Positions 614 to 14,684 are shown, counted from the first letter of the stretch. The stretch: DNA of 14,695 nt from an uncultured archaeon (GCA_964347045.1 CAYFXC010000032.1:1-14695), one strand, 5' to 3'. A program made the numbers and translations. The notes: a model not told the origin generated them from the letters alone.

Positions 614-771
614 CTCAATCACCTAACCCGAAATATTTTCCAACTTAAAGTGAGAAAGACTTTCCAGTTATTATATAAAAAATAAGTATTCGGTAAAACA
701 AGAACAGATTGAATTAATGGAGCTAGGCGTTATCATAATAATTTCAATGATGTAAACCTCTTACTAGAACC

Positions 772-829
772 ATGATGTGAACCAAATCATCTTTCATGTC
801 ATTTGCAAAGAAGCAGTATCCTGGTATTC
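772..829 (+). repeat. Inter-module repeat copy R1 (core intact, 3' part degenerate)
   Basis: ATGATGTGAACC-AAATCAT-CTTTCATGTCAT (772-802), then TTGCAAAGAA..GTATTC. Confidence 0.85.
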
Positions 830-1056
830 TCTTTTCAACTGATGAAAGAGGTGGAAGAGGAACAGATTTAGTCAGAAAACATTATGGGCGTTCGCCATTT
901 TTTAGATAATAATTTGCATCCGGTTTCATCATATTTTTATAGCCGAAGAAATTAATTTTCTCAATATTTGAGAATGTTTTTACCATTCGCGATACATAAT
1001 GCTCTTACACTAAGAATATTTGTCTTAACAAAGACCATCAAGGAGGTTGATAGACC

Positions 1057-1998
1057 ATGAAAGTCATCTATCGTCATTATGAACCGGAGCAGAAATTAGA
1101 AGAAATTCGGGCACAGATCTACACCACCGCTTCAGGTCTTCCCGCAACCGCTGATCAAATCAGAGTTCAAGCACTGAATAGTGATCCAAAACTGATGCGT
1201 TTTGCTTTCACTGAAAAAGATGAACCACTCGCGTACATCTCAGCGAGCGGCTCTGATTCCCAACCTTGGACGATTGGCATGGGTTATCCTTGGTCCCTAC
1301 CCGGATGCCCCTCCAATGTCCAGGAGAAAATCTTCAAGGACCTAATTAGCTACATCAAACGTAATGAAAAAATCCAAGAAATCACTACCGGAGTGGTTTG
1401 GGCGTCAAAAATAGCTAATGATCAAATCCAGTTTTTCCAAGAGAATGGCTTCACCGAGAAAGAAAGGGTATTCCTATACTCCCTTGACTATGACATCACA
1501 GAAGTTAGTCAATGGAAATTAACCAAAGATATAAGCTCCTTTAGTAGTCGAGTAGCAACGAGTAAAGATGTTAATCAGTTGGTTGAACTATGCCAGTCTG
1601 ATCCCATCATACGAAATGCCTTCCCAACCCAAGAAGCTTGGAAAAGCTACTTCGAAGACAGAGTTCTAAAAGATGGACACGCTGTAATGGTTTTCAAGGG
1701 GAACCAAGTCGTTGCTGCAAGCGCTCCCCTCAGGTTTAAACCCGATGGTATTTTCCTAAGAGGAAATGAAGAACGAATCATAATGAGATTCCGAGCAGTC
1801 AGGCCAGGCCATCAAGAAGCTTGGAAAAGGCTGCTAATAGAACTAACCAAGGAAGCTGTAGCTGCAGGATGGACCGATCTTCCACTTAGAGAAAGCATTT
1901 TCTTCTCTACAAATTCATTAACTGCAACTATTTTGGCCGAACAACACCCAGATATCGAAGAAACCCAAATAATACTATCCTACCAACCTCAATCCTAA
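1057..1998 (+). CDS. Hypothetical protein, possibly tandem GNAT-like fold
   Basis: 313-aa ORF with AGGAGGT SD upstream. The IYRHYEPE start, FFQENGFTE motif and SRVATSKDVNQLVEL segment resemble a two-domain GNAT layout. The function is not established. Confidence 0.75.
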   Translation: MKVIYRHYEPEQKLEEIRAQIYTTASGLPATADQIRVQALNSDPKLMRFAFTEKDEPLAYISASGSDSQPWTIGMGYPWSLPGCPSNVQEKIFKDLISYIKRNEKIQEITTGVVWASKIANDQIQFFQENGFTEKERVFLYSLDYDITEVSQWKLTKDISSFSSRVATSKDVNQLVELCQSDPIIRNAFPTQEAWKSYFEDRVLKDGHAVMVFKGNQVVAASAPLRFKPDGIFLRGNEERIIMRFRAVRPGHQEAWKRLLIELTKEAVAAGWTDLPLRESIFFSTNSLTATILAEQHPDIEETQIILSYQPQS

Positions 1999-2089
1999 AC
2001 CACTCTGCCACACATTGTTTTCATGTAGATTACACAGTAAACAAATTTGCGAATTCAACATCACCCTGATGAACTTCTTTCAGCAATAA

Positions 2090-2196
2090 ACGATATGAAC
2101 AAAATCATCTTTCCCGTCATTTGTAAGAAATTGAATGTCCGTCTTCAGCACTTAATGCAGCACATAACTCACTAAAAATAAACTGACGATAATAAA
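2090..2196 (+). repeat. Inter-module repeat copy R2
   Basis: ACGATATGAACA-AAATCAT-CTTTCCCGTCAT (2090-2120), TTGTAAGAAA, GTCTTC (2141-2146), ATAACTC, AAAAATA. Confidence 0.85.
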
Positions 2197-2363
2197 TGTA
2201 GGCTAATTCACCCCAGATGACACATTATTATCTGAATTAACAGATGGTTAAGCTCTGTTTATTATAATATTTATTTAAATATATAGCTAAACATTATTGT
2301 TTCTTCGGCTTATATTAAGCACGGCTACCATTAATTCACGCAAGACCTTCACGAGGGAGTTGC

Positions 2364-3734
2364 ATGAAACTGACAATAAAAAATCTTAGAAGCGTCCTAG
2401 CACTAATACTGCTTTTTTCAGCGGTTTCTCCGGTTTTTTATTACCTGCTAAATTCTGATGGTTCTCCATGGGACCCTAACCCTTCAGAAACACAGCACGC
2501 CACATTACCGCATCATAAAATACTAGTGAATAATGAGCATTATCCAGAGTGGAATGTAACATTAGGAGGAACTGGTACTCAAACCGGTGCTTCGATTATT
2601 GAATGCCGAAATGGTGGTTATGCCTTAGTTGGCCAGGGCGCTGGCTGGGGAGACAGAGACGCGTTTCTAATCCGTCTTGATCAGGATGGAACGTTTCTCT
2701 GGAACCAGACCTATGGCGGGGAGGACAGGGATGGAGCGGGAGGCATTGTCGAATGTAGCGATGGTGGCTTTGCTATCACCGGGGGATCATCGAATTTCAC
2801 CACCGGAAACCACGCATGGTTACTTCGCACCGATGCGAACGGTAACCAACTTTGGAACTATACTTATCCAAGTCTTAATTTTGATGGATTTGGGGCAATT
2901 ATCGAGCTCTCAGGTGGCGGATTCGCCGTCTCAGGGTATACCGGGACTTTTGGGGCAGGAGGAATCGATGCTTGGTTGGTCTTTTTTGATGCTCTTGGAC
3001 AGCCGATTCAGAATTTCACATATGGTGGTATTGACGACGATTACGCAATTCGGATGATCCAGTGTCAAAGTGGTGGGTTTGCCATTGTTGGGACGACTGG
3101 CAGTTATGGGGAAGGAATAAGGAGCTTGTGGTTGCTACGTGTAAACGACAACGGCGATTTAGCTTGGAATAGAACCTATGGTGGCGCTGGTTGGGATACA
3201 TTGTACGGTGTTACCGAATGCCTTGATGGAAATCTAGCTCTCGCTGGATCTGGAAATAGCACGGGTGCCGGTAGTTGGGACATGATTCTCATTCTGACCG
3301 ATATGAATGGGAATGAGCTCTGGAACCAAACCTTTGGGGGCACCGCGAGTGATGGCGCCTTTGGGCTTGTTCAACTAGCCGATTTAGGCTTTGCCCTAGC
3401 TGGTTGGACTTACTCCTTTGGGGCAGGCTCCGAGGATATCTGGGTTGTCCGCACCGACCAAAATGGAAATCAACTTTGGAATCAGACCCTTGGTGGAGCA
3501 AGTTTTGATGAATGCTTTGATGTCGAAAAAACCTCAGATGGCGGATTCATCCTGGTTGGTGATACCTACAACTTTGGAGACCCCATCGATGTGTGGGTCC
3601 TTTATTTCAAAGACGACTCTCCACCTTTCACGCCCTCACTTCCAATAGAACTCATTGGACTCGTAGTGATCATCATTCTCGTAATCGTTATAGCAGGTCT
3701 ACTATTAATTCGGCGCCGGCAAACAGCGACTTGA
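2364..3734 (+). CDS. Secreted, C-terminally membrane-anchored repeat protein (probable beta-propeller)
   Basis: N-terminal hydrophobic signal or TM segment. About 7 repeats of roughly 50 aa of the form DGGFALAG.T..FGAG..D.WL.R.D.NGN.LWNQTYGG. C-terminal TM IGLVVIIILVIVIAGLLLI followed by RRR. Confidence 0.85.
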   Translation: MKLTIKNLRSVLALILLFSAVSPVFYYLLNSDGSPWDPNPSETQHATLPHHKILVNNEHYPEWNVTLGGTGTQTGASIIECRNGGYALVGQGAGWGDRDAFLIRLDQDGTFLWNQTYGGEDRDGAGGIVECSDGGFAITGGSSNFTTGNHAWLLRTDANGNQLWNYTYPSLNFDGFGAIIELSGGGFAVSGYTGTFGAGGIDAWLVFFDALGQPIQNFTYGGIDDDYAIRMIQCQSGGFAIVGTTGSYGEGIRSLWLLRVNDNGDLAWNRTYGGAGWDTLYGVTECLDGNLALAGSGNSTGAGSWDMILILTDMNGNELWNQTFGGTASDGAFGLVQLADLGFALAGWTYSFGAGSEDIWVVRTDQNGNQLWNQTLGGASFDECFDVEKTSDGGFILVGDTYNFGDPIDVWVLYFKDDSPPFTPSLPIELIGLVVIIILVIVIAGLLLIRRRQTAT

Positions 3735-3811
3735 TCACCATCGCTAACTCCAGGCAAAGCAGGAAATTGCGTAAGGAATTTTACAAATTCCAAAACGGTC
3801 AATCTAACAGT

Positions 3812-3925
3812 ATGACGTGAAGCAGATCATCTTTCACATCGTTTGTAAGAAACCGCTTGTGCGTCTTCGAAAGTAGGGAAAACCGCAAATAACTCGTCCA
3901 GAAATAGTCTACGGCAATTAAAAAA
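3812..3925 (+). repeat. Inter-module repeat copy R3 (most complete)
   Basis: ATGACGTGAAGC-AGATCAT-CTTTCACATCGT (3812-3842), TTGTAAGAAA, then GTCTTCGAAAGTAGGGAAAACCGCAAATAACTCGTCCAGAAATAGTCTAC (3863-3912), which matches R5 at 43/50 by hand alignment. Confidence 0.9.
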
Positions 3926-4184
3926 AATGCCCGAAGATTTGAGTATGCCTTGAGTATCTCCCTGCAAGGGTAGCGGTACCAGTCTCCACCAACCTAAAAT
4001 CGGTACGCCCCATACATATTTCCTTGAAGCCCTCAGCCTCAATGTTCAGTCTCGAATTCTGATCCCGGGCCATCACTAAACCACAGACCGAACAGGAATA
4101 CACTCGCTCATCCACGCGAACCTCGCGGATGGCTCCATACCCTGAACAGATTTTAGTAGAGGGGAACCAGCGATCCACATGCAC
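3918..4184 (-). pseudogene. tnpB: TnpB C-terminal fragment (zinc ribbon / RuvC III region)
   Basis: VDRWFPSTKICSGYG..ERVYSCSVCGLVMARDQNSRLNI matches the TnpB pattern V.R.FPSSK.CS.CG..R...C..CG...DRD.NAA.NI. One Cys is changed to Tyr, and the N-terminal ~300 aa are missing. Confidence 0.85.
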
Positions 4185-4316
4185 CGGCGTATTGGTTATG
4201 GTGTTCGTCTGGGTTTGGTGCTGTGGGTTCTACATGTTGTATCGATTGTGGCTTCTTTAATCCCCCGCGTATTTCATTCCACTCCTAAAGGATGTGGGCT
4301 TTCTTGCGCGGGGTAC
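3930..4316 (-). mobile_element. Internally deleted IS200/IS605-family remnant (end hairpin plus tnpB 3' fragment); boundaries approximate
   Basis: A tnpB C-terminal fragment lies about 80 bp from a subterminal hairpin typical of IS605 ends. On the minus strand the hairpin reads AAGCCCACATCCTTTAGGAGTGG, within an outer CCCCGCG..CGCGGGG stem (4263-4313). Confidence 0.75.
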
Positions 4317-4317
4317 C

Positions 4318-4360
4318 TTGTAAAAATTTCAAATATGTCTTCGAGTTTCATTCAAATAGT
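4318..4360 (+). repeat. Partial (right-half) repeat copy R3b abutting the IS remnant
   Basis: TTGTAAAAATTTCAAATAT-GTCTTCGAG (4318-4345) matches the TTGTAAGAA..GTCTTCGAA part of the repeat at the usual spacing. The palindromic core is absent. Confidence 0.55.
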
Positions 4361-4426
4361 TAGAAACTTTTCGAACAACATTAGAATTCAATACTGTTAA
4401 TTCAAAAGTAGCACTTGGTGATTGAA

Positions 4427-5410
4427 ATGAAAATCAGCATTAGTATCGAACCTCATGCAGGGTATACATACGATGATATCGTTACCTTAGCGAAAGCAGC
4501 TGAAGATGCAGGATTTTATCGATTCACCGTATCAGATCATTTCTTTGGATGGATTGAAGGCAGAGAGAATCAATGTTATGAGGCTTGGACCACCCTTGCA
4601 TTACTCACTCCACAAACAGAGAGGATTCACCTCGGAACTCAGGTCACTTGTCAATCCTATCGGAATCCGGCGCTTCTTGCGAAGATCGCGGCTAACCTAG
4701 ACAACGCTTCCAATGGTCGAATCACCCTTGATATTGGAGCTGGGTGGAAGAAGCCGGAGTACGAAGCATACGGATATCCGTATCCTTCCACCAAGACCCG
4801 AATTCTCCAATTGCGAGAGGCACTCCAAATCATCACTCTGCTATGGACAGAAGAACGACCTAGCTTTGATGGAGAGTTCTACAGTATCAAGGAAACGACG
4901 TTCCTCCCAAAACCCGTTCAAAGTCCGCACATCCCCATTTGGGTGGGAACAGAAACGCTCAAGGCACCGCTGATGGAAGAAACCGCGGCGAGATATGCAG
5001 ACGGCGTGGATTATATCAAAGGAACAGTGGCAGACTATGCCCAAAAGAAGGAACGCATGAGAGTAATGTGTGAAACGGTTGGCCGCAACTTTGAGGAGTT
5101 AGGATGGTCTACAGGACTCATGGTAGCCGTCATCGGTGAGGATAATGATGATTTTGAAAATCGAAAGCGCGATGTGATACGTCAGGAATGGCTTCACGGG
5201 AATTATACAGAGGAATTTAAGAAGAAGGCACTAGAGGCGGGTTGTAAGCAGGATTTAGCCGGACCACCTGAGAGGGTCATTGAAAGATTACGTCAATACA
5301 AGGAGCGTGTAGACGTTTTCAATATCGGCTTACCTTTCGTGGGGAATGTTCGACAAATGGGGTTAGATACGGTTCGGATTCTGAAGGATCACATTGTTTC
5401 AAAAATATGA
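4427..5410 (+). CDS. LLM-class flavin/F420-dependent oxidoreductase (luciferase-like)
   Basis: Motifs AEDAGF..VSDHF, EAWTTLA, TERIHLGT, YRNPALLAKIAANLD.ASNGR..L.IGAGW, PKPVQSPHIPIWVG. ATG at 4427 is preferred over TTG at 4415 because SD GGTGA lies at 4417-4421. Confidence 0.93.
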   Translation: MKISISIEPHAGYTYDDIVTLAKAAEDAGFYRFTVSDHFFGWIEGRENQCYEAWTTLALLTPQTERIHLGTQVTCQSYRNPALLAKIAANLDNASNGRITLDIGAGWKKPEYEAYGYPYPSTKTRILQLREALQIITLLWTEERPSFDGEFYSIKETTFLPKPVQSPHIPIWVGTETLKAPLMEETAARYADGVDYIKGTVADYAQKKERMRVMCETVGRNFEELGWSTGLMVAVIGEDNDDFENRKRDVIRQEWLHGNYTEEFKKKALEAGCKQDLAGPPERVIERLRQYKERVDVFNIGLPFVGNVRQMGLDTVRILKDHIVSKI

Positions 5411-5433
5411 GTGACAAAAAATCATTAGAAATA

Positions 5434-5542
5434 GCGATGTGAAACAAATCTATCCTTCACGTCATTAGTACGAATTAGCACGTTTGTCTTCAACATCTTG
5501 TAAACTGTCTAATAACACAAGGAAAATCTGGCTGCAGCAATA
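5434..5542 (+). repeat. Inter-module repeat copy R4 (between convergent genes)
   Basis: GCGATGTGAAAC-AAATCTAT-CCTTCACGTCAT (5434-5465), TAGTACGAA, GTCTTC (5486-5491), AATAACAC, AAAAT. Confidence 0.85.
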
Positions 5543-5543
5543 T

Positions 5544-5577
5544 TCACCGCTAACCCTTCTGAGAGAGGTTCGGGTGA
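5544..5577. terminator. Imperfect hairpin just past the regulator stop codon; possible terminator
   Basis: TCACCG-ct-AACC-cttctgagaga-GGTT-CGGGTGA inverted repeat. Confidence 0.35.
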
Positions 5578-5583
5578 GTTGGT

Positions 5584-6192
5584 TTACGAGGTTGAGCGGG
5601 ATTTTGGAAGTTTCATTCTTAGTTTTTCAATACTGATTTTTCCTTCCTCTAGGTGCAATTTTGTATATTCAAGTAGGAGTGAAAGATAAAGGAACTCCGC
5701 CGTTTCTTCATCACTTTCTTTGGCTTCATCGACTCGTTCCTCAATGGCTTCTGCGATTTCTTGAGCATATTGATCGATTAACGGACTCGCGACCTCTTGG
5801 AGATCAAGGTTTTGGCTTCCAATTTTTCCTAACAAATACCCCCACAGAAAGGTCTTAATGGGGAGTAACTGGGCTTCCTGTTCGGCTGGCGAGAGGGCCC
5901 GAAGTTTGGGTACTTGCAACGGAAACACGGCGCGATAGAATTTCCGAATTCCCCCGCGGTAATATTCCTCTCGAGTTTTTCTGATTAGGTGCTCTTCCTC
6001 AAGACGTTTTAGGTGGTAGCTGATTCGGCTTTTGCTCAAGCCTAACATCCTTGCTAATTCGCCGAGAGAGCGTTCTTCTTTCGTTAAGTGTCGTAAAATA
6101 CTAGCAGTAATAGGGCGAACGAGCATGGATGCGGACTTGGGCTGTTTGATAGACCGAGTTTGTGTTCGAGGAGCATCTCCCAGAGTCTTCAC
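5584..6192 (-). CDS. ArsR/HTH_20-type winged-helix transcriptional regulator
   Basis: PITASILRHL..SLGELARMLGLSKSRISYHLKRLEEEHLIR..RKFYR. It is divergent from the opine dehydrogenase operon. Confidence 0.88.
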   Translation of the reverse strand: MKTLGDAPRTQTRSIKQPKSASMLVRPITASILRHLTKEERSLGELARMLGLSKSRISYHLKRLEEEHLIRKTREEYYRGGIRKFYRAVFPLQVPKLRALSPAEQEAQLLPIKTFLWGYLLGKIGSQNLDLQEVASPLIDQYAQEIAEAIEERVDEAKESDEETAEFLYLSLLLEYTKLHLEEGKISIEKLRMKLPKSRSTS

Positions 6193-6211
6193 TTCCGCGT
6201 TAGTGTTCTGA

Positions 6212-6230
6212 TTTTATAAAACTTATAAAA
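6212..6230. promoter_or_regulatory. Archaeal TATA-like boxes in the divergent promoter
   Basis: TTTTATAAAA (6212-6221, palindromic) and TTATAAAA lie 20-38 bp from the regulator GTG, compatible with a leaderless transcript. Confidence 0.5.
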
Positions 6231-6260
6231 GGCTGCAAAACACTTATATCTAATACTGTA

Positions 6261-6307
6261 AAATTTTTGACGGTTAAAAATTTGACGGTTATGTAATTGA
6301 CGGTCAA
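6261..6307. promoter_or_regulatory. Triple operator-like repeat, 15-bp period
   Basis: TTGACGGT at 6267, 6282 and 6297. The third copy forms the palindrome TTGAC-G-GTCAA. Confidence 0.7.
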
Positions 6308-6419
6308 ATAATTCCAAGTTCACCACAGAAGCTAGTTTGAGTGCAGGGCTAGAATTTTCCTCCTCACAAAATACAGCCCCACCACAGCATCTGTAAATTC
6401 TCCTCAGGAGACGAATGCA

Positions 6420-7568
6420 ATGTCGGTTAAACTAGCAATCTTAGGCGCGGGACATGGGGGCCAAGGGCTTGCAGCCTATCTTGCCCTTGACGGTCACGAG
6501 GTAAGTCTGTACAATCGATCAAAATCTCGACTGCGTCCAATACAAAAGCAAAATGGAATTCATGTTGAAGGTGAAGTTAATGGGTTCGCACAGTTAACCA
6601 GTTGTACCTCAAGCATTCAACACGCGCTCTCCGATGTAGATATTGTCTTTCTTGTGGTTCCTGCATCCGCGCATCGCGATTTAGCACGAAAATGTTCGCC
6701 CTATCTAACGCCCGAGCAACTGGTTGTACTAATTCCTGGACGAACGGGTGGCGCTTTAGAGTTCTCCACCATTGTGGAAGGACTCACTGGTTGGCGACCA
6801 ATCATTGCAGAAGCCCAAACATTTCCACTTGTAAGTCGTGTGATCAAGTCAGGATACGCCCACGTCTCGGCAATTAAATCAGAACTACCCGTGGCTGCTT
6901 TTCCTGCAAAACACACCGAAATTATCTGTGATCGGATTTCGTCTGTTCTCCCAAATGTCCGAAATGCCGAAGATGTACTCGAAACAGGCCTTGCCAATAT
7001 TGGGTCGGTTTTTCATCCAGCGCCATTGATTCTAAATATTGGTCGGGCTGAAACCACCAATGGTCAATATAATCACTATCTTGAAGGTGTCTCGCCTTCG
7101 GTTGCCCGTTTCCTCGAGCAAATTGATGCGGAAAGAGTTGCAGTGGGAACCGCTTTTGGGAAAGATATTCTTTCCGCCGCTAAATGGCTACGAGTAGTCT
7201 ACGACGCTGAAGGGACCACCTTGTATGAATGCTTGCATACGACTTCTGCCTACCAAGGTTTGGGAGCCCCGAGTTCGTTGGACCATCGATATCTCCATGA
7301 AGATGTACCCACCGGATTAGTGCCTATTGCAGCATTGGGTGAACTAGCAGGCGTACCAACTCCTACTATTCGCGCAACAATCGCGATGGCTTCACAGTTA
7401 TGTGGTCGTGATTTCTGGCAGGAAGGACGAAATGCTGAGAATCTTGGAATTACTGATTTTTCGCCAGCTGAATTACTGATGTTTGTGTGGGATGGATCGC
7501 TTGTAGCCTTGGAAGTTGCCGAGGAACTGGCAGTAGTTCAAGAATGGGAGGAGGTTGATTCCGAATGA
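6420..7568 (+). CDS. NAD/NADP octopine/nopaline (opine) dehydrogenase family protein
   Basis: Rossmann motif LAILGAGHGG, PGRTGGALEF, IAEAQTFP, L.NIGSVFHP and C-terminal HRYLHEDVPTGLVP. SD AGGAG lies upstream. Confidence 0.9.
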   Translation: MSVKLAILGAGHGGQGLAAYLALDGHEVSLYNRSKSRLRPIQKQNGIHVEGEVNGFAQLTSCTSSIQHALSDVDIVFLVVPASAHRDLARKCSPYLTPEQLVVLIPGRTGGALEFSTIVEGLTGWRPIIAEAQTFPLVSRVIKSGYAHVSAIKSELPVAAFPAKHTEIICDRISSVLPNVRNAEDVLETGLANIGSVFHPAPLILNIGRAETTNGQYNHYLEGVSPSVARFLEQIDAERVAVGTAFGKDILSAAKWLRVVYDAEGTTLYECLHTTSAYQGLGAPSSLDHRYLHEDVPTGLVPIAALGELAGVPTPTIRATIAMASQLCGRDFWQEGRNAENLGITDFSPAELLMFVWDGSLVALEVAEELAVVQEWEEVDSE

Positions 7569-9310
7569 CTAAGATGCGTAAATCCACAAGAACAAACAAA
7601 CTCATTCTCGGTGCGTGTTTAGGGAATTGTGTCCACGTTGCCGGGACGTTAAATTTCTTGCAACTGGCAAAAGCCAAAGGATATCAAACGAAGTTTCTAG
7701 GTCCGGCAACCCCTATCTCTACGATTCTCGATGAAGTAGAGCAAACGGATGCACCAATTATCGGGTTAAGCTACCGACTTACACCCACAGTGGCATATCG
7801 GTTGACACTGAAACTCAAAAAAGAAGTACACAAACGTAATCTTACAAATCGCATCTGGCTTTTTGGCGGAACAACCCCTGTTACCGAGAAGGTACGCAAA
7901 GTGGGGTTCTTCGACTATTATTTTGATGGGAATTCAACCGAGGAAGATGTACTATTGTTTTTAGCCGCTGACTGTAACCCGCAACAGTTAGCGGAAAAGG
8001 CTCAATGCATGGGTCCTGTAACTTATGCCACGACGTTATTGGCACGGATGGCTGAACGAAAGCCTTGGCCAGTGATCCGACATCATTTTGGTCTTCCAAA
8101 TTTGGAAGAAACGATTCAAGGAATTGCAAAGATTGCCGACGCTAAATGTTTGGATATCCTCTCTATTGGTCCCGATCAAAATGCTCAACAGTTCTTCTTC
8201 CACCCAGACAAAATGAAAGACACCGTTGAAGGTGCCGGTGGTGTCCCAATTCGCACAAAAAAGGATCTTCAAGCCATGTTTGATGCCTCACAGCGTGGTA
8301 ACTATCCGCTTCTCCGATGCTACAGTGGCACTCAAGATCTTCTGAAATGGGCCAAGCTTCTCCATATGACCATCCATAACGCGTGGACTGCAACACCCAT
8401 TAACTGGTATAGTGTTCTCGATGGACGGGGCACACGCTCCTTAACAGAAGCCATCCAAGAAAATATGGACAATATTGCCTGGCATGGCAAACAGGGCATC
8501 CCTGTTGAAGTCAATGAACCACACCATTGGAGTCTACGGCAGGCGCATGATACCATTGCAGTGGCATCCGCATTCTGGTCAGCGTTCATTAGTAAGTCAA
8601 AGGGTGTACGGCATTACATTGCGCAATTAATGATGAACACTCCTCTCGGCACATCGCCTGCTATGGATTTGGCGAAGATGTGGGCTAAACTCGTCTTAGT
8701 CGAGTCATTACAAGATAATTCCTTCCAGGTTATTCGGCAAGTACGGGCTGGACTTTTCAGCTTTCCTGTGGACCTCGATGCGGCCAAGGGTCAATTGGCA
8801 GCCTCGGCATATACCTCGATGATGTTACAACCAGCAATTGTTCATGTTGTAGGGTTCAGTGAAGCCGATCATGCGGCAACCGCTGATGATGTAATCACAA
8901 GCTGCAAGATTGTCCGGCAAGTGATCAAAGAATGTAGAAGCGGCATTCCAAATCCTTGGCTGGATTCACAGATAATTGCACGAAAAGAACAACTCGTCAG
9001 CGAAGCGAGCCTTCTTTTAAGGGTGTTAAACGAGCTTCCTGAAGATAAAACTCCTCATCCGCTCTTGAACCCCACAACCTACGAACTTGCCATAAAGCAA
9101 GGAATTCTAGATGCCCCAGGTTTGAAAGGTAACCCCATTGCACGTGGACGACTGCACACTCAGATGATTGAGGGAGCCTGCTGTGCCGTTGATGAAAATG
9201 GTGAAATTCTCTCCGAGTTCACCCGTCTTGAGGAACTCGTTCCCAAGAAACTAGCGGCTTCAGAGGAACGAGAAAAACAACATGAAAAGTTAGTGCACCA
9301 AATTGCTTAA
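7565..9310 (+). CDS. Cobalamin-binding domain protein fused to a probable TIM-barrel domain (putative B12-dependent mutase-like enzyme)
   Basis: N-terminal base-off/His-on signature variant GNCVHVAG..GLSYRL..LFGG, followed by a ~420-aa catalytic-size domain. It overlaps the upstream gene by ATGA and has a GGAGGT SD. Confidence 0.8.
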   Translation: MTKMRKSTRTNKLILGACLGNCVHVAGTLNFLQLAKAKGYQTKFLGPATPISTILDEVEQTDAPIIGLSYRLTPTVAYRLTLKLKKEVHKRNLTNRIWLFGGTTPVTEKVRKVGFFDYYFDGNSTEEDVLLFLAADCNPQQLAEKAQCMGPVTYATTLLARMAERKPWPVIRHHFGLPNLEETIQGIAKIADAKCLDILSIGPDQNAQQFFFHPDKMKDTVEGAGGVPIRTKKDLQAMFDASQRGNYPLLRCYSGTQDLLKWAKLLHMTIHNAWTATPINWYSVLDGRGTRSLTEAIQENMDNIAWHGKQGIPVEVNEPHHWSLRQAHDTIAVASAFWSAFISKSKGVRHYIAQLMMNTPLGTSPAMDLAKMWAKLVLVESLQDNSFQVIRQVRAGLFSFPVDLDAAKGQLAASAYTSMMLQPAIVHVVGFSEADHAATADDVITSCKIVRQVIKECRSGIPNPWLDSQIIARKEQLVSEASLLLRVLNELPEDKTPHPLLNPTTYELAIKQGILDAPGLKGNPIARGRLHTQMIEGACCAVDENGEILSEFTRLEELVPKKLAASEEREKQHEKLVHQIA

Positions 9311-9483
9311 AGAATCAGGATCAGGAACTGAACAACATTGTCAATGTGCCCTTCCACAGCTGAACAAGGATGATATTTTTGTCGCGTGACTACCTCCCCA
9401 ATTTCGAATGACAATTGGTCAACAAGCCAATTGGTATCAATCTTGTTTTGAAAATTCAAATGAATAATGTGCGATTCAATTCT

Positions 9484-9595
9484 ATTTGGTAAACCTAATC
9501 ATCTTTCATGTCATTTTGAAGAATAGCACATATGTCTTCGAAAGTAGGAAAAAACGCCAATAACACATCAAAAAATAGTCTACTACCATTCAAAA
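9484..9595 (+). repeat. Inter-module repeat copy R5 (between convergent genes)
   Basis: ATTTGGTAAACC-TAATCAT-CTTTCATGTCAT (9484-9514, left arm degenerate), TTTGAAGAA, then GTCTTCGAAAGTAGGAAAAAACGCCAATAACACATCAAAAAATAGTCTAC (9534-9583). Confidence 0.9.
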
Positions 9596-9676
9596 GAATA
9601 CACACAAACCGAATTTACAGATAGAAGAAGAAAGGACTGGTATCCGGATTCCTGACGCCTGTCGAAAGACGGTGGT

Positions 9677-12472
9677 CTAATCCTTGCGTAGTCTCTTTGC
9701 TACGAGCTTCCTTATCTCCTCAAGGAGGATAACCAGGGATCCGAACAGGGCCACTCCTACCCATTCATACCAAGCAAGCGGTACAAGTCTGAAGATTGCG
9801 GCTAGCGCGGGGACCACAAAGAGGATTCCAACCAGTATGATGTCGATGAGATAGACGACGAGGATGTACCGATTCCGAAGGATTCCCATCTCTCGGATTG
9901 ATTTGGTGGGAGATCTGCAATTCTGGACACTGAACCACTGAACCACGATTAGAGTAACGAACATCATTGTCCTGATTTTGTCCTCTGGCAGGCCAAGATA
10001 CTGGTAGTAGATGATGATAACTAAGGATGCCATGATGCCACCATAGAAGAGCGCTCTGCTGAGGGTTCCCCAAGAGAGAATTCGATCCTTAAGGGAGCCT
10101 GGTCCTTCATCCAAGAGACCCTCCTCTTTAGGCTCGAGAGAGAGAGCAATGTCTAGCATGCCATCGGTAACGAGATTGATCCAAAGAATTTGAATCGGAA
10201 GCAGAAGAACAGGATTCACGAATAGCCAGAGCACTGCAAGGATAGTGAAGCTCTCGGCTAGATTCGTCGATGTCAGAAAGAGAACAACACGCCGAAGCGA
10301 GGTCAGGATGTTTCTGCCCTCTTCAATGCCATCGACTACCGCCTCAAAGCGCTCGTCCTGCAGCACGATATCGGAGGCCTCCTTGGCGATGTCAGTCCCT
10401 GTGACGCCCATGGCTATGCCAATGTTTGCTTGTCTTAGGGCTGGGCTGTCATTCACGCCATCGCCTGTCATACTGACGAGCTTGTCGAGGCTCTGCAGTG
10501 CTTTCACAACCCTGAGCTTGTGGATTGGGTTCGTTCTGGAGAGAACTGTGGCACCATGAGTCATTGCATCCTGAAGCTGCTGGTCATCCATAGCATCTAA
10601 CTCATCACCAGTAAGTGTCAGATCTCCCCTCTGCTCAACAAAGATGCCTACTTCCTGCCCAATTGCCTTAGCTGTAAAGGCATTGTCACCAGTTATCATG
10701 ATGACATCAATGCCTGCACTATTTGCTTTCTTGATGTAGTCACGGACTCCTTCCCTTGGCGGGTCGTTGATTCCACAGAGCCCAACGAATGTCATATCTC
10801 TGAGGTCCTCGTTGGTAATCTGGGTCTTATCAGAGGGCACAGTCCTGACTGCGCATGCTAGCATTCTGAGTCCTTGTGAAGCGAACTCCGTCACGATATC
10901 CTCTGTGTTGGACGGGTTCGAAAGGAACTGCTCTATGACCTCTGGGGCTCCCTTGACTATGACCAGATTTCCATCGCCTTCTGAACCCACAAGTCTGCTA
11001 GGCTGATGATGCGTTGCCATGAATTTCCTCTCACTGTTGAAGGGAATCTCAGAAATACGTGGCAAGGCCTCATCGAGCACATACTTGTGAAGACCGACCT
11101 TTTCCAGCGCCACCAGCAGAGCTGCTTCGGTAGGTGAACCGCGTATCCTCCATGCTCGATCAGCTCCGGTGCAGATTCGCGTTAGATCGTCTTCTGTAAG
11201 GCACTCCGAATAGACTTCTGAGTCGTTACAGAGAGCCATCATCGTCAGAAACCTTTCGAGGTCCGGGTACTCCTTGAGCTGATCCCCCTCGATAGGCTCT
11301 TCTGAAGACGCTTGGCTCACATCGAGGTCGGGCGACCGCAGGCATCCTTCTGGGCCGCAGCCTGCAAGGAAGATTCCTCCGCTTTCGACATCAAATCCTG
11401 AGCCACTTAATTCGAACATATTGTTCGGAGTAAATATTCTGCGGGTCATCATTTCGTTCTTCGTAAGGGTTCCGGTCTTATCCGAGCAAATGACATTAAC
11501 TAGGCCTAGTGTTTCTACAACACCCAAGTTTCTCACAATGACATTCTTCTGTGATAGCTTGTAAACTCCAACAGAGAGCACTATGGTGACAATGGTGATG
11601 AGACCCTCAGGAATCGCAGACACAAGTGCAGATAGTGAGAACAAAAAGAGCTCCACAATGGGTATGTTCCGGTAGAGCCCCAAGGATACAGTGAGCACCA
11701 AGAAGAGCATTGCTGCAGCAAGAAAGAAGATGCTCAGTCGCTTTAATCGAATCATAATGGTTGTTTCTTTTTTAACGACGCCCGCGAGCTCCTTGTTGAT
11801 TTCGCCCAAGGTGGTGTTATCACCAGTAGCCTGCACCAGAATACGGGCGCGGCCTTCTGTGACATACGAGCCAGCAAAGACCTTGTTGGACTCCTCATAG
11901 TAGCGTGGGTTCTCAACCGCACAGAACACCTCTTTCTTGATTGGCACGCTCTCTCCAGTTAGGAGACTCTCATCGACATGCAGGTTGCTCTCGAATAACA
12001 CCCTTCCGTCTGCAGTGACCTTCTCTCCAGCTCTGAGAAGGAGCAGATCCCCAGGAACCAGCTCCGCGGAGGGGATTTCAGTCTCCTCTCCATCGCGAAT
12101 GACAAGGGACCTCTGTTCTATTAGCTTCTTGATTGACTCGATGGTTCTTTCTGCCTTCCACTCTTGGACGAAGCCTATGATCGCATTGATCAAGAGAATG
12201 ATTGCGATAACCGCGGCGTCTATTGCATGATCTACTAGAACAGAGACAACAGCTGCAAAAATGAGAACATACACCAGAGGCGACTTGAACTGACGGAGGA
12301 AGAGCGAAACAGGACTCTGCCTCTCCTTCATTGTGAGTTCGTTACGTCCGTATTCCAAGAGCCTCTTTTTCACCTCTTCCGGTTTCAGCCCTTCAGGGTC
12401 TGTACCGAGGCTTACTAGACATTCCGAATAATCGAGGAACTCTTCTGGTGGAGATTCTTTGCTCGTGGCCAT
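9677..12472 (-). CDS. Cation-transporting P-type ATPase, type II (Ca2+-ATPase-like)
   Basis: Motifs LTGES, IPEGL, CSDKTGTLT (phosphorylation site), KGAPE, DPPR, MITGD, TGDGVNDSPAL, ILWINLVTDG. The start is ATG 12472 or the adjacent GTG 12475. A TATA-like ATATATAG lies about 30 bp upstream. Confidence 0.96.
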   Translation of the reverse strand: MATSKESPPEEFLDYSECLVSLGTDPEGLKPEEVKKRLLEYGRNELTMKERQSPVSLFLRQFKSPLVYVLIFAAVVSVLVDHAIDAAVIAIILLINAIIGFVQEWKAERTIESIKKLIEQRSLVIRDGEETEIPSAELVPGDLLLLRAGEKVTADGRVLFESNLHVDESLLTGESVPIKKEVFCAVENPRYYEESNKVFAGSYVTEGRARILVQATGDNTTLGEINKELAGVVKKETTIMIRLKRLSIFFLAAAMLFLVLTVSLGLYRNIPIVELFLFSLSALVSAIPEGLITIVTIVLSVGVYKLSQKNVIVRNLGVVETLGLVNVICSDKTGTLTKNEMMTRRIFTPNNMFELSGSGFDVESGGIFLAGCGPEGCLRSPDLDVSQASSEEPIEGDQLKEYPDLERFLTMMALCNDSEVYSECLTEDDLTRICTGADRAWRIRGSPTEAALLVALEKVGLHKYVLDEALPRISEIPFNSERKFMATHHQPSRLVGSEGDGNLVIVKGAPEVIEQFLSNPSNTEDIVTEFASQGLRMLACAVRTVPSDKTQITNEDLRDMTFVGLCGINDPPREGVRDYIKKANSAGIDVIMITGDNAFTAKAIGQEVGIFVEQRGDLTLTGDELDAMDDQQLQDAMTHGATVLSRTNPIHKLRVVKALQSLDKLVSMTGDGVNDSPALRQANIGIAMGVTGTDIAKEASDIVLQDERFEAVVDGIEEGRNILTSLRRVVLFLTSTNLAESFTILAVLWLFVNPVLLLPIQILWINLVTDGMLDIALSLEPKEEGLLDEGPGSLKDRILSWGTLSRALFYGGIMASLVIIIYYQYLGLPEDKIRTMMFVTLIVVQWFSVQNCRSPTKSIREMGILRNRYILVVYLIDIILVGILFVVPALAAIFRLVPLAWYEWVGVALFGSLVILLEEIRKLVAKRLRKD

Positions 12473-12537
12473 CACCGGTCCGATTGTCTAGACTTGAGGT
12501 CCCTATATATGCTTCATGCTGGGTGATGATTTGCCCA

Positions 12538-12643
12538 ATGATGTGACACAAATCCTCTCCAAAACTATCAAGAATTGTATATTTGTCTTCGAAATTTGGA
12601 AGAAAGGCGAATAACACCCTGGAAAGGCTTCTTCGCAATAAAA
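12538..12643 (+). repeat. Inter-module repeat copy R6 (right arm of core degenerate)
   Basis: ATGATGTGACAC-AAATCCT-CT.., CAAGAA, GTCTTCGAAA (12585-12594), GGAAGAAAGGCGAATAACAC, GCAATAAAA. Confidence 0.8.
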
Positions 12644-12649
12644 GAGGAG

Positions 12650-12719
12650 CGAAGGAAGCGATGCGCCTTCCTTCGGTGACGTGACGCTGAAGAAAGAAGA
12701 GAGGGTCGCCGAGACCCTC
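12650..12719 (-). terminator. Two GC-rich hairpins downstream of the 279-aa gene; probable terminator region
   Basis: GAGGGTC-gccga-GACCCTC (12701-12719) is followed on the minus strand by TCTTCTTTCTT. A second stem CGAAGGAAG..CTTCCTTCG spans 12650-12675. Confidence 0.5.
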
Positions 12720-12723
12720 ATCT

Positions 12724-13563
12724 CTATTGTGCCGTTCTTCTTCGCCTCAGGAACACGATTACTACCACAATGACCACTACAGCAACAACGACTCCAATGA
12801 CAATCGGTATCCAAAGTGGGATTCCGCACTGTATGGGTAGAACCTCATCGTCTACTACAATGTTATCAATCGAGTGCCAAGCTTGAGATCGCATACAAAA
12901 CGTCTCAGATGTGTCGATGACTGTGTTCACTGCCTGCATGATTAGACAACCGTTATGGTATACTGAGATTAAACCATCTGTAGTCCTAGTCACATCGATG
13001 TGATGCCAACCTGTAAGAGGTACAGGGAATGTATAATTAGCGAGTACTGTCCCTTCACCATAATTGAACCATCCAAGAGATATAGCGAGATCATAGTCTA
13101 GTCCCCATCTAACAGGAAAAATTCGAATACCGTAGTTATATCCATCGTCCGAATCATTCATATCGTGTGGATCGTTGCTCATGAATGCGATTTGAACAAA
13201 ACCAATAATGCTTGCCAAAGAGTCAATAAAAGGCTCGGTCAAATTAAGGTTGAAATCAAAACTCCAAGTCCCATAGGCTACATCACTAGAACGTCTTATT
13301 GTACCCCACCGGCCGATTGATGGGAGCATTTGTACATAATCATTGGCAGCCGACCAATTTGAACCTCTGAACCCCCATTCAGGGTTTTCCATCCATCCTG
13401 TTGCAGTGTTGTTAACGCTGGTCCATTCAGGTTCAAAGGTACCATCATCAAAGTTGTCAGTCCAAATCACTGCGCCTCGACATGTTTGGGGAGCCAAGCC
13501 CATCCAACCGAGGAGCAACACGATTCCGAGGCCCACTAGCTTGTACTTCAATCTCTCGACCAT
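12724..13563 (-). CDS. Secreted, C-terminally anchored protein with a probable concanavalin A/LamG-like beta-sandwich
   Basis: Signal peptide, WTDNFDDG, GWHHIDVTRTTDGLISVYHNG, IDNIVV, and a C-terminal TM followed by RRRR. SD GGAGGTG lies upstream. Confidence 0.8.
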   Translation of the reverse strand: MVERLKYKLVGLGIVLLLGWMGLAPQTCRGAVIWTDNFDDGTFEPEWTSVNNTATGWMENPEWGFRGSNWSAANDYVQMLPSIGRWGTIRRSSDVAYGTWSFDFNLNLTEPFIDSLASIIGFVQIAFMSNDPHDMNDSDDGYNYGIRIFPVRWGLDYDLAISLGWFNYGEGTVLANYTFPVPLTGWHHIDVTRTTDGLISVYHNGCLIMQAVNTVIDTSETFCMRSQAWHSIDNIVVDDEVLPIQCGIPLWIPIVIGVVVAVVVIVVVIVFLRRRRTAQ

Positions 13564-13731
13564 AGTGAATACACCTCCAATGTTCGGTCCTTTCAGGACC
13601 TAACGGTAATTTCGAAACCAGATCGATCTTACCCTCCAATTCGACGCTGAAATCATATCAGCGAGAATTCAAAACCGCCCTGTTCAACTCACATTATATA
13701 AATTAACCGGTTTTCGGCAACTCTATTAATC

Positions 13732-13803
13732 ATAACGTGGCAATCAAGCCACCCTCTCGTGACCAACGAGAATCATCTCCGCATCTACGTCTTCGAAAGA
13801 CGT
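13732..13803 (+). repeat. Highly degenerate repeat copy R7
   Basis: ATAACGTGG (13732), AATCATCT (13771-13778) and GTCTTCGAAAG (13789-13799). The spacing differs from the consensus. GTCTTCGAAAG is part of the hairpin ACGTCTT-CGA-AAGACGT. Confidence 0.4.
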
Positions 13804-13817
13804 TCTAACGTGGAATT

Positions 13818-14684
13818 TTAGCTTTGTATGTCCAATTGCAGATTCCTTTGGCGAATACTGTTGAGCTTTAATAGCGTTCCAAGAAACAACACCAACGATA
13901 CTATCAGAATTGATGTCCAAAATATGAAGTTGAAATCAACTCCTGTAATAAAAATTGGTAGTTCACTGAATGTTCCTAGGAGATTCGACCACCAATATGA
14001 GAACAAAAATACATCCATCCCGGTGTGGGCGATCATGGCTGGAATTAGTGAGCCGGTAAGAAAGGCAAGATACCCTAAGAAGACACTAAGAATTAGACCA
14101 TGGATAAAAATGGGGGGTAACCATGATTGATTGAGGTGGATGAGGATGAATGTAACTGATACAATGGCAATTGCTACATTGGCAGTGTAACGCTTCTCAA
14201 GTGGCACCTGACCGTATCCTCGAAACCCAATTTCCTCACAAATTCCTGCCACTACTGCGGCCATGAAGATTCCCAACCAAGCCACCCAAAGCGACATCCC
14301 CTCGAAATTATAGATCGTGAATAATTCAGCCGGAAATGGGAGGAGCCGAAACGTTACTACAAGCATTGATTGTGAAATGACCACGAAGAGAATTATGGCC
14401 ACAATGCTCCATAACCACACAGCCGATGGTAGTTGAACCGATCGAAAATAAGTGCGTCGAGCCTCTTTAGTTGCTTCATGGCCCCTGCGACCACTAAAAA
14501 ATAGCACATACCCAATTAGTATGGCACCCATAATGACAATTGCCCAGGGTAGTGGTGTCAAGATCATTAGTAGTGACCAGGATAAAGTTCCAATCATTGT
14601 AACCGACAGCATAAGCAGTATGGCTTGAATGATTGTGGGTAATCTGTTCCAAAACATTGCGATTCTATTTTTCATTGTGTTCAT
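13818..14684 (-). CDS. CPBP (CAAX protease / Abi family) intramembrane glutamic endopeptidase
   Basis: Multi-TM protein with EEIGFRG (EExxxR), FILIH (FxxxH) and AHTGMD (HxxxB) motifs. Confidence 0.92.
   Translation of the reverse strand: MNTMKNRIAMFWNRLPTIIQAILLMLSVTMIGTLSWSLLMILTPLPWAIVIMGAILIGYVLFFSGRRGHEATKEARRTYFRSVQLPSAVWLWSIVAIILFVVISQSMLVVTFRLLPFPAELFTIYNFEGMSLWVAWLGIFMAAVVAGICEEIGFRGYGQVPLEKRYTANVAIAIVSVTFILIHLNQSWLPPIFIHGLILSVFLGYLAFLTGSLIPAMIAHTGMDVFLFSYWWSNLLGTFSELPIFITGVDFNFIFWTSILIVSLVLFLGTLLKLNSIRQRNLQLDIQS

Follow-up and report, generated by a model that had tools for sequence, protein, structure and literature searches.

Why should one and the same repeat stand, in a single orientation, between the unrelated genes of an archaeal chromosome, and what would it do there? 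This question is raised by a contig of the Asgard archaeon Candidatus Hermodarchaeum, which in its entirety (14,695 nucleotides) forms the window analyzed here and which belongs to a hypervariable chromosomal region of ~80 kb in the assembly. A first-pass annotation, made from the sequence alone, had read the repeats as recombination sites of a system that captures genes and stacks them in tandem. Our data support this reading as the likely one: the hypervariable region probably consists of gene units that are joined by a co-oriented duplex recombination site and reshuffled site specifically. No published description of this system was found in the literature that we searched.

Repeat copies and gene units in the window

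A ~105-bp repeat is present in the window in six full copies and two partial ones, always on the plus strand. The full copies, sites S1 to S6 (R1 to R6), were delimited by repeat search, MAFFT and nhmmer (E values of 1e-11 to 1e-20), while the partial copies comprise the last bases of the left arm, the core motif GTCTTC, and the right arm. The window opens with a putative esterase gene (unit 0; positions 2 to 622, minus strand) that is truncated by the contig end. S1 (772 to 885) follows, with an intact left-arm palindrome, a degenerate core that lacks GTCTTC, and a poorly conserved right arm. Unit 1 encodes a 313-amino-acid protein (1057 to 1998, plus strand) and recurs, over ~887 to 2122, in seven relatives. 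At S2 (2090 to 2203; GTCTTC at 2141 to 2146), the right arm and the unit behind it, unit 2, recur jointly on contig G003:C1; this unit encodes a 456-amino-acid protein with internal repeats (2364 to 3734, plus strand), the most widespread array family, found in 10 genomes. Homology with the same G003 contig in the unit upstream of S3 (3812 to 3925; GTCTTC at 3863 to 3868) stops at 3872. Unit 3 (3918 to 4184, minus strand) is the remnant of a TnpB/Cas12f-like gene, of which only the TNB domain is left.

The first partial site (4318 to 4400; GTCTTC at 4337 to 4342) is of the core-plus-right-arm type, and the homology of the following unit in three relatives (G007, G008, and G010) begins at 4324 to 4334; this unit 4 encodes a luciferase-like monooxygenase (4415 to 5410, plus strand). 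The right arm of S4 (5434 to 5548; GTCTTC at 5486 to 5491) accompanies unit 5 on G014:C9 and G012:C66. Unit 5 (5584 to 9310, mixed strands) moves as one block of three genes, which encode a winged helix-turn-helix regulator (5584 to 6192, minus strand), an opine dehydrogenase (6420 to 7568, plus strand), and a protein with a B12-binding domain (7565 to 9310, plus strand). S5 (9484 to 9597; GTCTTC at 9534 to 9539) and S6 (12538 to 12648; GTCTTC at 12585 to 12590) enclose unit 6, with a P-type cation ATPase gene of 2.8 kb (9677 to 12475, minus strand); this unit is 90 to 92% identical in six other species. Unit 7, encoding a 279-amino-acid protein (12724 to 13563, minus strand), is followed by the second partial site (13745 to 13830; GTCTTC at 13789 to 13794), which has an internal deletion in its left arm, and by a CPBP/Rce1-like protease gene (unit 8; 13818 to 14684, minus strand) that adjoins the contig end.

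Most of what the first-pass annotation had described in the window held, namely the positions of the copies, their shared strand, their internal motifs, and their gene contexts (divergent genes at R1, tandem genes at R2 and R6, convergent genes at R4 and R5), as well as the likeness of R3 and R5, whose right arms are 82% identical over 66 nucleotides. The claim that cargo lies in both orientations between directly repeated sites was also borne out, and the gap at 6193 to 6419 carries no repeat copy because the three-gene unit between R4 and R5 travels, with its own regulator, as one block. Of the gene labels, "IS remnant" corresponds to the TnpB/Cas12f fragment, and "GNAT-like," "repeat surface protein," and "lectin-like" are without Pfam support; the 313-, 456-, and 279-amino-acid proteins have no Pfam match.

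Clustering, polarity, and genus restriction

Using nhmmer, we found 21 to 25 copies in assembly G000, located only on contigs C32, C40, C31, C38, C44, and C55 and at the ends of C11 and C21, and none outside array contigs or contig ends across the rest of the 2.58-Mb assembly. The repeat is present in 13 of the 14 genomes of the genus, at 5 to 35 copies each, and in none of four genomes of the sister genus. Among GTDB species representatives (~185,000 species), an exact 18-mer from the spacer region is multicopy only in Hermodarchaeota metagenome-assembled genomes (MAGs). Across 41 contigs from 13 genomes, 177 of 178 copies agree in orientation with the rest of their contig, with a single copy in the minority. 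Sites lie at a median spacing of 1.5 kb with one to three genes per unit, and the arrays contain 409 open reading frames in 246 families. The repeat family, its clustering, its strict polarity, and its restriction to the genus are shown.

A short, noncoding, intergenic, palindrome-bearing, and multicopy repeat could also be a MITE, a REP, or another dispersed selfish element that is frequent here by chance. This is all but excluded, as the copies are co-oriented and restricted to one hypervariable region of the 2.58-Mb assembly, no Y1 transposases were found in five genomes, and the palindrome shows no covariation. Dispersal of the MITE/REP type, in both orientations, is ruled out by the copy distribution.

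Exchange of units between species

Relatives carry the units of the window in a different order and in different surroundings, and the blocks of homology start and stop inside the repeats. Among 5,460 site pairs, none has both neighbors in common. Recurring units are 80 to 92% identical, compared with 67 to 79% for syntenic flank DNA and 56 to 73% amino acid identity for a flank protein between relatives, a baseline for core identity that rests on two flank regions only. We consider the exchange of units between species shown by these data. The first-pass annotation had named three outcomes that would speak against its reading, and none of them came about: copies are not scattered genome-wide in both orientations, relatives do not keep the order of the genes, and synteny breakpoints do not fall away from the repeats. 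It had also proposed a search for excised circles; neither a circle nor a deletion variant was directly seen, in a search of assembled contigs only and not of reads. That recombination is conservative and site specific and passes through circular intermediates is our inference.

Anatomy of the site

The left arm, of ~56 nucleotides, consists of an 11-9-11 inverted repeat (ATGATGTGAAA-N9-TTTCACATCAT, also readable as 12-7-12), whose asymmetric spacer is highly conserved, and of ~20 variable bases behind it. The core is the invariant GTCTTC, mostly GTCTTCGAA, and the right arm, of ~50 nucleotides, carries the conserved blocks AATAAC and GAAAA. The TTGTAAGAA block, GTCTTC(GAA), and AATAACAC are all found in the repeat. 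The inverted repeat with its conserved asymmetric spacer occurs in ~70% of sites, without binding data to support its recognition by a protein, and the palindrome is absent from 36 of 178 sites (20%).

The site is likely to be a duplex sequence motif rather than a structure folded like attC, given that RNAalifold predicted no pairs in 17 copies and that covariation is lacking in the palindrome of 99 copies, where pairing amounts to 81.0%, compared with 81.7% in shuffles. In this respect, the earlier statement that the repeat is not attC-like was correct. Its companion, that nothing dif-like is present, held for the sequence, since a search with the Thermococcales-type dif motif gave no match to the palindrome or the site, but failed for the architecture, as the left-arm palindrome has the layout of two arms and an asymmetric spacer seen in lox/dif-type tyrosine recombinase sites.

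A different origin is suggested by the minus strand of the left arm, which in several copies reads as a peptide resembling D-V/M-K-D-D-L-F/V-H-I, with apparently synonymous differences. In this scenario, the repeats would be att scars of integrative elements inserted successively at the end of one protein-coding gene, by tandem accretion or gene-tail replacement. We regard this as very unlikely: 3-nucleotide periodicity over 98 copies is weak (1.13/1.37/1.14 bits), many copies contain frameshifts or stops, a full-length parent gene is absent from the genome and from the array borders, and the units carry no integrases.

Two junctions and the linkage of the arms

The positions of the junctions are shown. 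On contigs from other samples and studies, the ATPase unit starts at 9533/9534 and runs to 12593, preceded by a different left arm at S5 and followed by a different right arm at S6; such contigs also contain the hybrid joints 3853>9534 and 805>13781, the latter (in run X4) joining a full left arm to the sequence from 13781 onward. In 28 pairs of sites with homologous downstream units (11 families), right-arm identity is 0.84/0.74, versus a background of 0.48/0.42 (z of +19.5/+15.5). This linkage begins immediately after the core, and core positions 7 to 9 covary with the right arm. In 19 pairs with homologous upstream units (16 families), linkage is confined to the left palindrome arm and is weak there (0.75 versus 0.65; z of +2.2); it fades over this arm and the spacer (z of +2.2 and +1.0), and the variable part of the left arm is at background level (0.58 versus 0.56). 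The sharper junction is GTCTTC, 45 nucleotides away. At the 36 palindrome-less sites, homologous upstream units abut GTCTTC and then enter different right arms. The linkage pairs are few and stem from related genomes.

The left arm follows neither neighbor. Its variable stretch between palindrome and core shows no linkage to the right arm (z of +0.2), and identical left-arm variants are found between unrelated neighbors. For 22.8% of left arms, the nearest one belongs to the same genome, versus 8.7% in shuffles (z of 4.8), and G001 has a variant of its own; right arms show no such clustering by genome (z of -0.9). A plain lox- or attC-type reaction is thus too simple, because a single exchange point leaves unexplained why the left arm goes with neither neighbor. 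We correct the count to two exchange points instead of one. In the model that we propose, site-specific recombination between direct repeats would excise, insert, and reorder the units, which would also be passed from one species to another. Exchange would take place mainly at GTCTTC, with the right arm belonging to the following unit, and at a second point at or within the palindrome, which would account for the independence of the left arm and its partial homogenization within genomes.

Homologous recombination offers another explanation, in which the repeats are kept for some other reason, such as gene regulation or the binding of a chromosome-organization protein, and merely serve as portable homology. 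In its favor, the left arm is tied to neither neighbor and is partly homogenized within genomes, as by gene conversion; no dedicated recombinase was found; and both junctions fall on the two best-conserved blocks. However, the sharpest and commonest junction lies at a block of 6 to 9 nucleotides despite a conserved block of 29 nucleotides only 20 nucleotides away, the lack of linkage between the variable stretch and the right arm is beyond what crossovers confined to the long block could produce, and palindrome-less sites still exchange precisely at GTCTTC. Moreover, long perfect left-arm matches are rare, because pairwise left-arm identity is only ~70%, and the polarity of 177 of 178 copies, together with the conserved right-arm motifs, points to a directional protein-DNA reaction. 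We therefore consider this explanation improbable.

Alternatively, right arm and cargo could be inserted by cuts at both ends of the left arm, whose ~56 nucleotides the host would duplicate with each insertion, in the manner of CRISPR adaptation or of long target-site duplications. The two sharp boundaries of the left arm, its lack of linkage to either neighbor, and its clustering by genome are in keeping with such a reaction. Against it, searches of 19 genomes returned neither Cas1 (PF01867) nor a casposase, neighboring left arms resemble each other no more than nonadjacent ones do (0.66 versus 0.65), left-arm identity within genomes is just 0.72, compared with 0.70 between genomes, the left arm is missing at 20% of sites, and the far end of the units lacks a conserved terminus that a transposase could recognize. 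We doubt that it applies.

Search for the recombinase

A recombinase, the search for which at the array ends had been suggested at the outset, was not found adjoining any array or among the 409 array open reading frames. As the arrays encode no recombinase, the enzyme would act in trans. No serine recombinase was found. Both tyrosine recombinases of G000 fall short of the integron-integrase cutoffs (TIGR02249, 154.9 versus 265; NF011946, 114 versus 435), and the better of the two fits XerA (NF040815, 271 bits with a cutoff of 220; best PDB match, 4a8e). An XerA-type gene is present in 12 of 14 genomes of the genus, including 9 of 9 at ≥80% completeness, and in none of four genomes of the sister genus. 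G004 lacks both this gene and the repeat, and G007 (77% complete) has arrays with no XerA detected. Since XerA, a single-copy gene, is common among Asgard archaea (72 of 151 sampled genomes), its match with the arrays is essentially one genus-level event. The host's single XerA-type enzyme, the only conserved recombinase, may perhaps be involved, but it is a weak candidate, whose identification as the enzyme is inferred and whose requirement is conjectural.

Comparison with known systems

Integrons, the textbook platform for accessory genes, are defined by IntI, a tyrosine recombinase with an integron-specific additional domain, and by the folded attC site, for which a conserved single-strand hairpin (R''-L''/L'-R' pairing), not the sequence, is the defining feature; their cassettes are mostly promoterless, single-gene, and co-oriented with the array. 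Like sedentary chromosomal integrons and CALINs, which are attC clusters without an integrase, the arrays described here are long chromosomal series of unrelated accessory genes with a co-oriented site at each unit boundary, units are gained, lost, reordered, and common to several species, exchange takes place at a short invariant core, and most arrays have no adjoining recombinase. They differ in having an unfolded duplex motif, no detected IntI with the integron-specific insertion, an independently assorting 56-nucleotide left arm, a unit-specific part of the site on the opposite side of the crossover from that of attC cassettes, and cargo in both orientations that includes multigene operons and genes of 3 to 4 kb. 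The survey of archaeal CALINs by Ghaly et al. (2022, PMC9668308) reports for Hermodarchaeum no more than one contig, from a single MAG, with a CALIN of two attC sites, in contrast to the 5 to 35 repeat copies per genome found here.

Xer-dependent sites consist of two inverted recombinase-binding arms around a central region of 6 to 8 bp within which crossover occurs. Similarly to the pdif modules of Acinetobacter plasmids and to IMEX, our units are gene modules bounded by sites in which a short spacer separates two inverted arms, and they lack a recombinase of their own; pdif and IMEX use the host's housekeeping Xer in trans. IMEX at dif (the CTX, TLC, and VGJ phages of Vibrio cholerae) likewise stack in tandem at a single chromosomal locus. 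However, pdif orientations alternate while our sites are all direct, the palindrome spacer here is 9 bp (or 7 bp) with no likeness to the Thermococcales-type dif motif, and the best-defined junction, GTCTTC, lies ~45 nucleotides from the palindrome. Any involvement of Xer is hypothetical.

With CRISPR arrays and casposons, the arrays share a repeated, partly palindromic element of ~56 nucleotides that has two sharp ends, lies between unrelated inserts without being passed on together with them, and groups according to host. They are set apart by the failure to find Cas1 in 19 genomes, by kilobase-sized gene units that carry a conserved arm, by repeats that are only ~70% identical, and by junctions that are repeat-less in 20% of cases. 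A bolder reading would be that of a third way of building gene-capture arrays, wherein only right arm and cargo move between cells and the host remakes the left arm with every insertion by cutting at its two ends, much as CRISPR repeats are duplicated, using some enzyme other than IntI and Cas1, possibly a redeployed XerA; we hold this to be unlikely.

The arrays thus combine integron-like architecture and behavior with a site that is defined by its sequence and does not fold, with two exchange points, and with the lack of an integron integrase, and their units turn over and are exchanged between species whose core genomes are only ~70 to 75% identical. This suggests that gene capture in cassette arrays has more than one evolutionary origin and that platforms of this kind escape surveys that rely on attC. 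For Asgard archaea, which are the closest archaeal relatives of eukaryotes, the arrays moreover provide a concrete route of horizontal gene flow. As the site is short and well defined, the reaction is directly testable in vitro.

With regard to what the arrays carry, their cargo makes up ~3% of the assembly and ranges over transporters, redox enzymes, cold-shock proteins, and even a TBP paralogue.

Distribution and mobility of the repeat-bounded units

Our data supported the interpretation proposed by a first-pass annotation from the sequence alone, in which the window is a cassette array of unrelated gene modules separated by recombination sites, integron-like yet not attC. The observation behind this proposal held, and only the mechanism past exchange at GTCTTC is still inferred. 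The window is the complete contig C32 of the source genome, a Candidatus Hermodarchaeum assembly (G000; 2.58 Mb in 83 contigs, 43% G+C). Repeat finding, alignment and profile searches recovered all of the annotated copies of a repeat of about 105 bp: six full copies on the plus strand, starting at 772, 2090, 3812, 5434, 9484 and 12538 (sites S1 to S6), and two partial copies, near 4318 and at 13745-13830. The genes that these copies separate show no relationship among them: an esterase; two proteins, of 313 and 456 aa, without a Pfam match; a TnpB/Cas12f fragment; a luciferase-like monooxygenase (LLM); a trio of regulator, opine dehydrogenase and B12-domain protein; a P-type ATPase; a protein of 279 aa; and a CPBP protease. 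Searches of the window with Rfam at gathering thresholds and with the ARAGORN tRNA scan gave no matches.

In G000, 21 copies were found with an iterated nhmmer profile versus 25 with a covariance-model search. They are confined to six short contigs (C32, C40, C31, C38, C44 and C55) and the ends of C11 and C21, and they share one orientation within each contig; the array contigs total about 80 kb, or about 3% of the assembly. An unfiltered search added weaker copies on C21, where the array then reaches back to around 10.4 kb. At C11:82296, a core in reverse orientation had an E value of only 0.03 and could be a chance match. Beyond G000, the repeat was found in 13 of the 14 genomes of the genus, at 1 to 35 copies each (5 to 35 except in G006), and all four sister-genus genomes lacked it. 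When an exact 18-mer from the spacer region was searched in about 185,000 species representatives, it was multi-copy in Hermodarchaeota metagenome-assembled genomes (MAGs) only, and the remaining matches were single occurrences, apparently due to chance. Counted over 41 contigs from 13 genomes, the sites lie at a median spacing of 1.5 kb, and a single one of 178 copies is in the minority orientation. Genome-wide scatter in both orientations, which would have refuted the first-pass annotation, was thus looked for and not seen; confinement, co-orientation and genus-limited occurrence of the copies argue that the repeat is not a dispersed MITE or REP element.

The flank on the DinB side adjoins the array in G009, G010 and G012, and the gene of the other flank is frequently found at contig ends, which suggests a fixed chromosomal locus for the array. 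No empty-site comparison with the sister genus was possible, as its two flanks are on separate contigs. The flank gene on G000:C11 (9810-12896, minus strand) encodes a 1028-aa protein without a Pfam match that both genera of the family retain, with 41-73% identity.

When the window was compared with the genus by BLAST, each of its units, consisting of one to three cargo genes between sites, recurred in several other species, in a different order and on different contigs, and the homology blocks began and ended within the repeats. The unit at 887-2122 was found in seven genomes, that at 2085-3872 in G003 and G001, the LLM unit (4330-5425) in five genomes, the three-gene unit (5436-9542) in G014, G003, G005, G012 and G013, and the ATPase unit (9636-12533), with 90-92% identity, in seven. 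In G010, the LLM unit almost adjoins the ATPase unit, and in G008 the order of these two relative to the first unit is altered. Not one of 5,460 pairs of full sites had both neighbors homologous. Neither conserved gene order in relatives nor breakpoints off the repeats, the other findings that would have spoken against a cassette array, was met with.

With the same genomes, the units share 80-92% identity versus 67-79% for a 10-kb conserved flank (G000:C25), and the 1028-aa flank protein shares 56-73%. Since the units exceed the flank in identity, we infer that their spread between species is far more recent than the divergence of the species, with the reservation that two flank regions alone provide this core baseline.

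Site structure and exchange points

In a consensus drawn from about 100 copies, each site comprises a left arm of about 56 nt, the core and a right arm. The left arm carries an 11-9-11 inverted repeat (ATGATGTGAAA, a 9-nt spacer and TTTCACATCAT), whose asymmetric spacer, CAAATCATC, is among the best-conserved blocks of this arm, and about 20 weakly conserved bases follow the palindrome. The core GTCTTC is nearly invariant, mostly as GTCTTCGAA, and in the right arm of about 50 nt, the blocks AATAAC and GAAAA are conserved. The palindrome is lacking at a fifth of all sites, 36 out of 178. RNAalifold gave zero pairs for the site; taken as a helix, the palindrome is paired in 81.0% of cells versus 81.7% in shuffles, and compensatory changes are not in excess. 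In the absence of any pairing or covariation signal, we infer that the palindrome halves are conserved as sequence, in the manner of a duplex binding site for a putative protein dimer, and not through attC-like pairing. A scan for dyad symmetry around GTCTTC revealed nothing on a par with the left-arm palindrome (best score, 0.46).

The left arm had also been suspected of being a decayed gene end, since the minus strand of some copies resembles a conserved peptide; this reading was dropped, as 3-nt periodicity over 98 copies was weak, frameshifts and stops were frequent and no parent gene was found. The only core-like sequence within coding DNA of the window lies at 8085-8111 in the B12-domain gene, where 27 nt with 89% identity to the core region of S6 contain GTCTTC and an 18-nt palindrome; this is probably a chance resemblance.

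Assembled contigs from three sediment metagenomes of other studies were aligned to the window. Metagenome contigs hold the ATPase unit from 9533/9534, where 9534 is the first base of GTCTTC in S5, to 12593, the end of GTCTTCGAA in S6, and the arms beyond those points differ. In two hybrid joints, 3853>9534 and 805>13781, the right arm at 9534 and that at 13781 each follow another left arm. As the contigs are assembled, the window parts left uncovered in runs X2-X4 and the lack of clean deletion joints are uninformative either way.

A pairwise comparison of 105 full sites from 13 genomes showed how the two arms are inherited. Among the 28 pairs (11 families) with homology confined to the downstream units, the right-arm halves have identities of 0.84 and 0.74 versus a background of 0.48 and 0.42 (z +19.5 and +15.5), with the rise immediately after the core, and rare variants at core positions 7-9 co-segregate with the right arm. 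Among the 19 pairs (16 families) with homology confined to the upstream units, identity reaches 0.84 over the last 10 bases before the site; the left palindrome arm has 0.75 against a background of 0.65 (z +2.2), and between the spacer and GTCTTC no excess over background is left (0.58 versus 0.56 for the variable part). The same left-arm variants stand between unrelated neighbors in different genomes, G001 having a private variant, and the closest relative of a left arm comes from its own genome in 22.8% of cases versus 8.7% in shuffles (z 4.8); right arms showed no such same-genome clustering. At palindrome-less sites, homologous upstream units reach GTCTTC and are followed by different right arms. 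From the arm linkage and the palindrome-less sites, we infer two exchange points, one sharp at GTCTTC and the other within or at the palindrome. The intervening stretch of roughly 45-56 nt assorts independently, and the right arm belongs to the downstream unit, the left arm being an independent, locally homogenized module.

We propose that units would be excised and inserted by conservative site-specific recombination between direct repeats, in the fashion of integrons. This mechanism is favored by the strict polarity, the invariant short junction block, the conserved arms and the palindrome with its asymmetric conserved spacer; beyond site-specific exchange at GTCTTC, it is inference only. 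Ordinary homologous recombination via the repeats would account for the free left arm, but it explains neither the dominant junction at a 6-9-nt block, with a 29-nt conserved block adjoining, nor the exchange at the core of palindrome-less sites, and we regard it as unlikely. The free, genome-clustered left arm may result from two alternative crossover points, gene conversion or duplication at insertion. Duplication is improbable: it is left without an enzyme, Cas1 having been found in 0 of 19 genomes, and adjacent left arms are not more alike than distant ones (0.66 versus 0.65).

Search for the recombinase

No integrase was found at the array borders on C11, C21 and C25 and no recombinase among 409 array ORFs or at borders; five genomes yielded neither serine recombinases nor Y1 HUH transposases, and IS110 occurs sporadically. 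The sole conserved recombinase (G000:C12:27252-28055) is a XerA-type protein of 315 aa that lacks the IntI insertion; its gene is present in 12 of the 14 genomes of the genus and in all nine with completeness of at least 80%. It was not found in G004, from which the repeat is likewise absent, or in the sister genus. Because 72 of 151 sampled Asgard genomes carry one such gene, we consider XerA a housekeeping enzyme and its correlation with the repeat the outcome of one or two events. The arrays might use XerA in trans, in the way pdif and IMEX elements rely on host enzymes, although we lean against this. The survey thus leaves XerA as the single, weak candidate, and the actual enzyme is not identified. 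No Thermococcales-type dif motif turned up in G000.

The four sister-genus genomes G015-G018, in none of which a XerA-type recombinase was found, are 80-83% complete. Among Asgard families, XerA presence is all or none, for example, 33 of 35 genomes in one family and 0 of 37 in another.

Another tyrosine recombinase, 350 aa long and ending in a double zinc ribbon, is encoded at the very end of contig G000:C9 (1210-2262), beside a Maf-like gene. It was rejected as the array enzyme, having no repeat nearby and no conservation across the genus; given this and a G+C content above that of its surroundings, it probably belongs to an integrated element.

Comparison with known systems

The array behaves like a sedentary chromosomal integron or CALIN, yet both defining features of the integron family, the folded attC and IntI, are missing from it. 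Archaeal integrons are likewise defined by the attC fold and IntI (Ghaly et al. 2022, PMC9668308). For Hermodarchaeum, the tables of that study contain no more than a cluster of two attC sites on a single contig of the MAG GCA_016550395.1, so attC models did not pick up these arrays; overlap of both attC calls with the repeat is unverified. Like Xer-dependent modules, the array has an arm-spacer-arm layout and does not bring its own enzyme; it differs from them in the orientation pattern and the position of the main junction. No earlier description of such arrays was found in the full-text literature searched (Hermodarchaeum, Hermodarchaeota integrons and Asgard cassette arrays). We read the system as a platform for gene cassettes in which both the site and the still unidentified enzyme are different. 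The present analysis adds genus-wide counts, the excess of unit over core identity, hybrid junctions in independent metagenomes, the split inheritance of right and left arms and the enzyme survey.

Cargo of the arrays

The 409 array ORFs fall into 246 families, of which 174 are singletons; recurrent families include transporters, redox enzymes, methyltransferases, LRR proteins, CBS proteins and a TATA-binding-protein paralogue. The last (PF00352, E value 8e-54; G000:C40, 3966-4517) is array cargo in four genomes, and a basal transcription factor is an odd passenger for a cassette array. Cold-shock protein genes are repeated cargo in the arrays of at least 6 genomes, and one (G000:C25, 1082-1318, minus strand) lies at an array border beside an alkylmercury lyase gene. 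A recurring piece of about 350 bp at the C25 border proved to be such a frequent-cargo cold-shock gene.

Between S3 and the palindrome-less site at 4318, the entire unit is a minus-strand remnant of a TnpB/Cas12f-like gene (3918-4184, TNB domain only; flanks 3930-4317), pieces of which match contig C81 of G010, about 1 kb apart there. An IS200/IS605-type element presumably inserted into or beside a site and later decayed.

The opine dehydrogenase and B12-domain pair (6420-9310) has remoter copies outside arrays, at 65-67% identity, on G008:C3, G009:C25, G010:C4 and G001:C340. Given these copies, the array pair resembles a mobile duplicate of a chromosomal pair.
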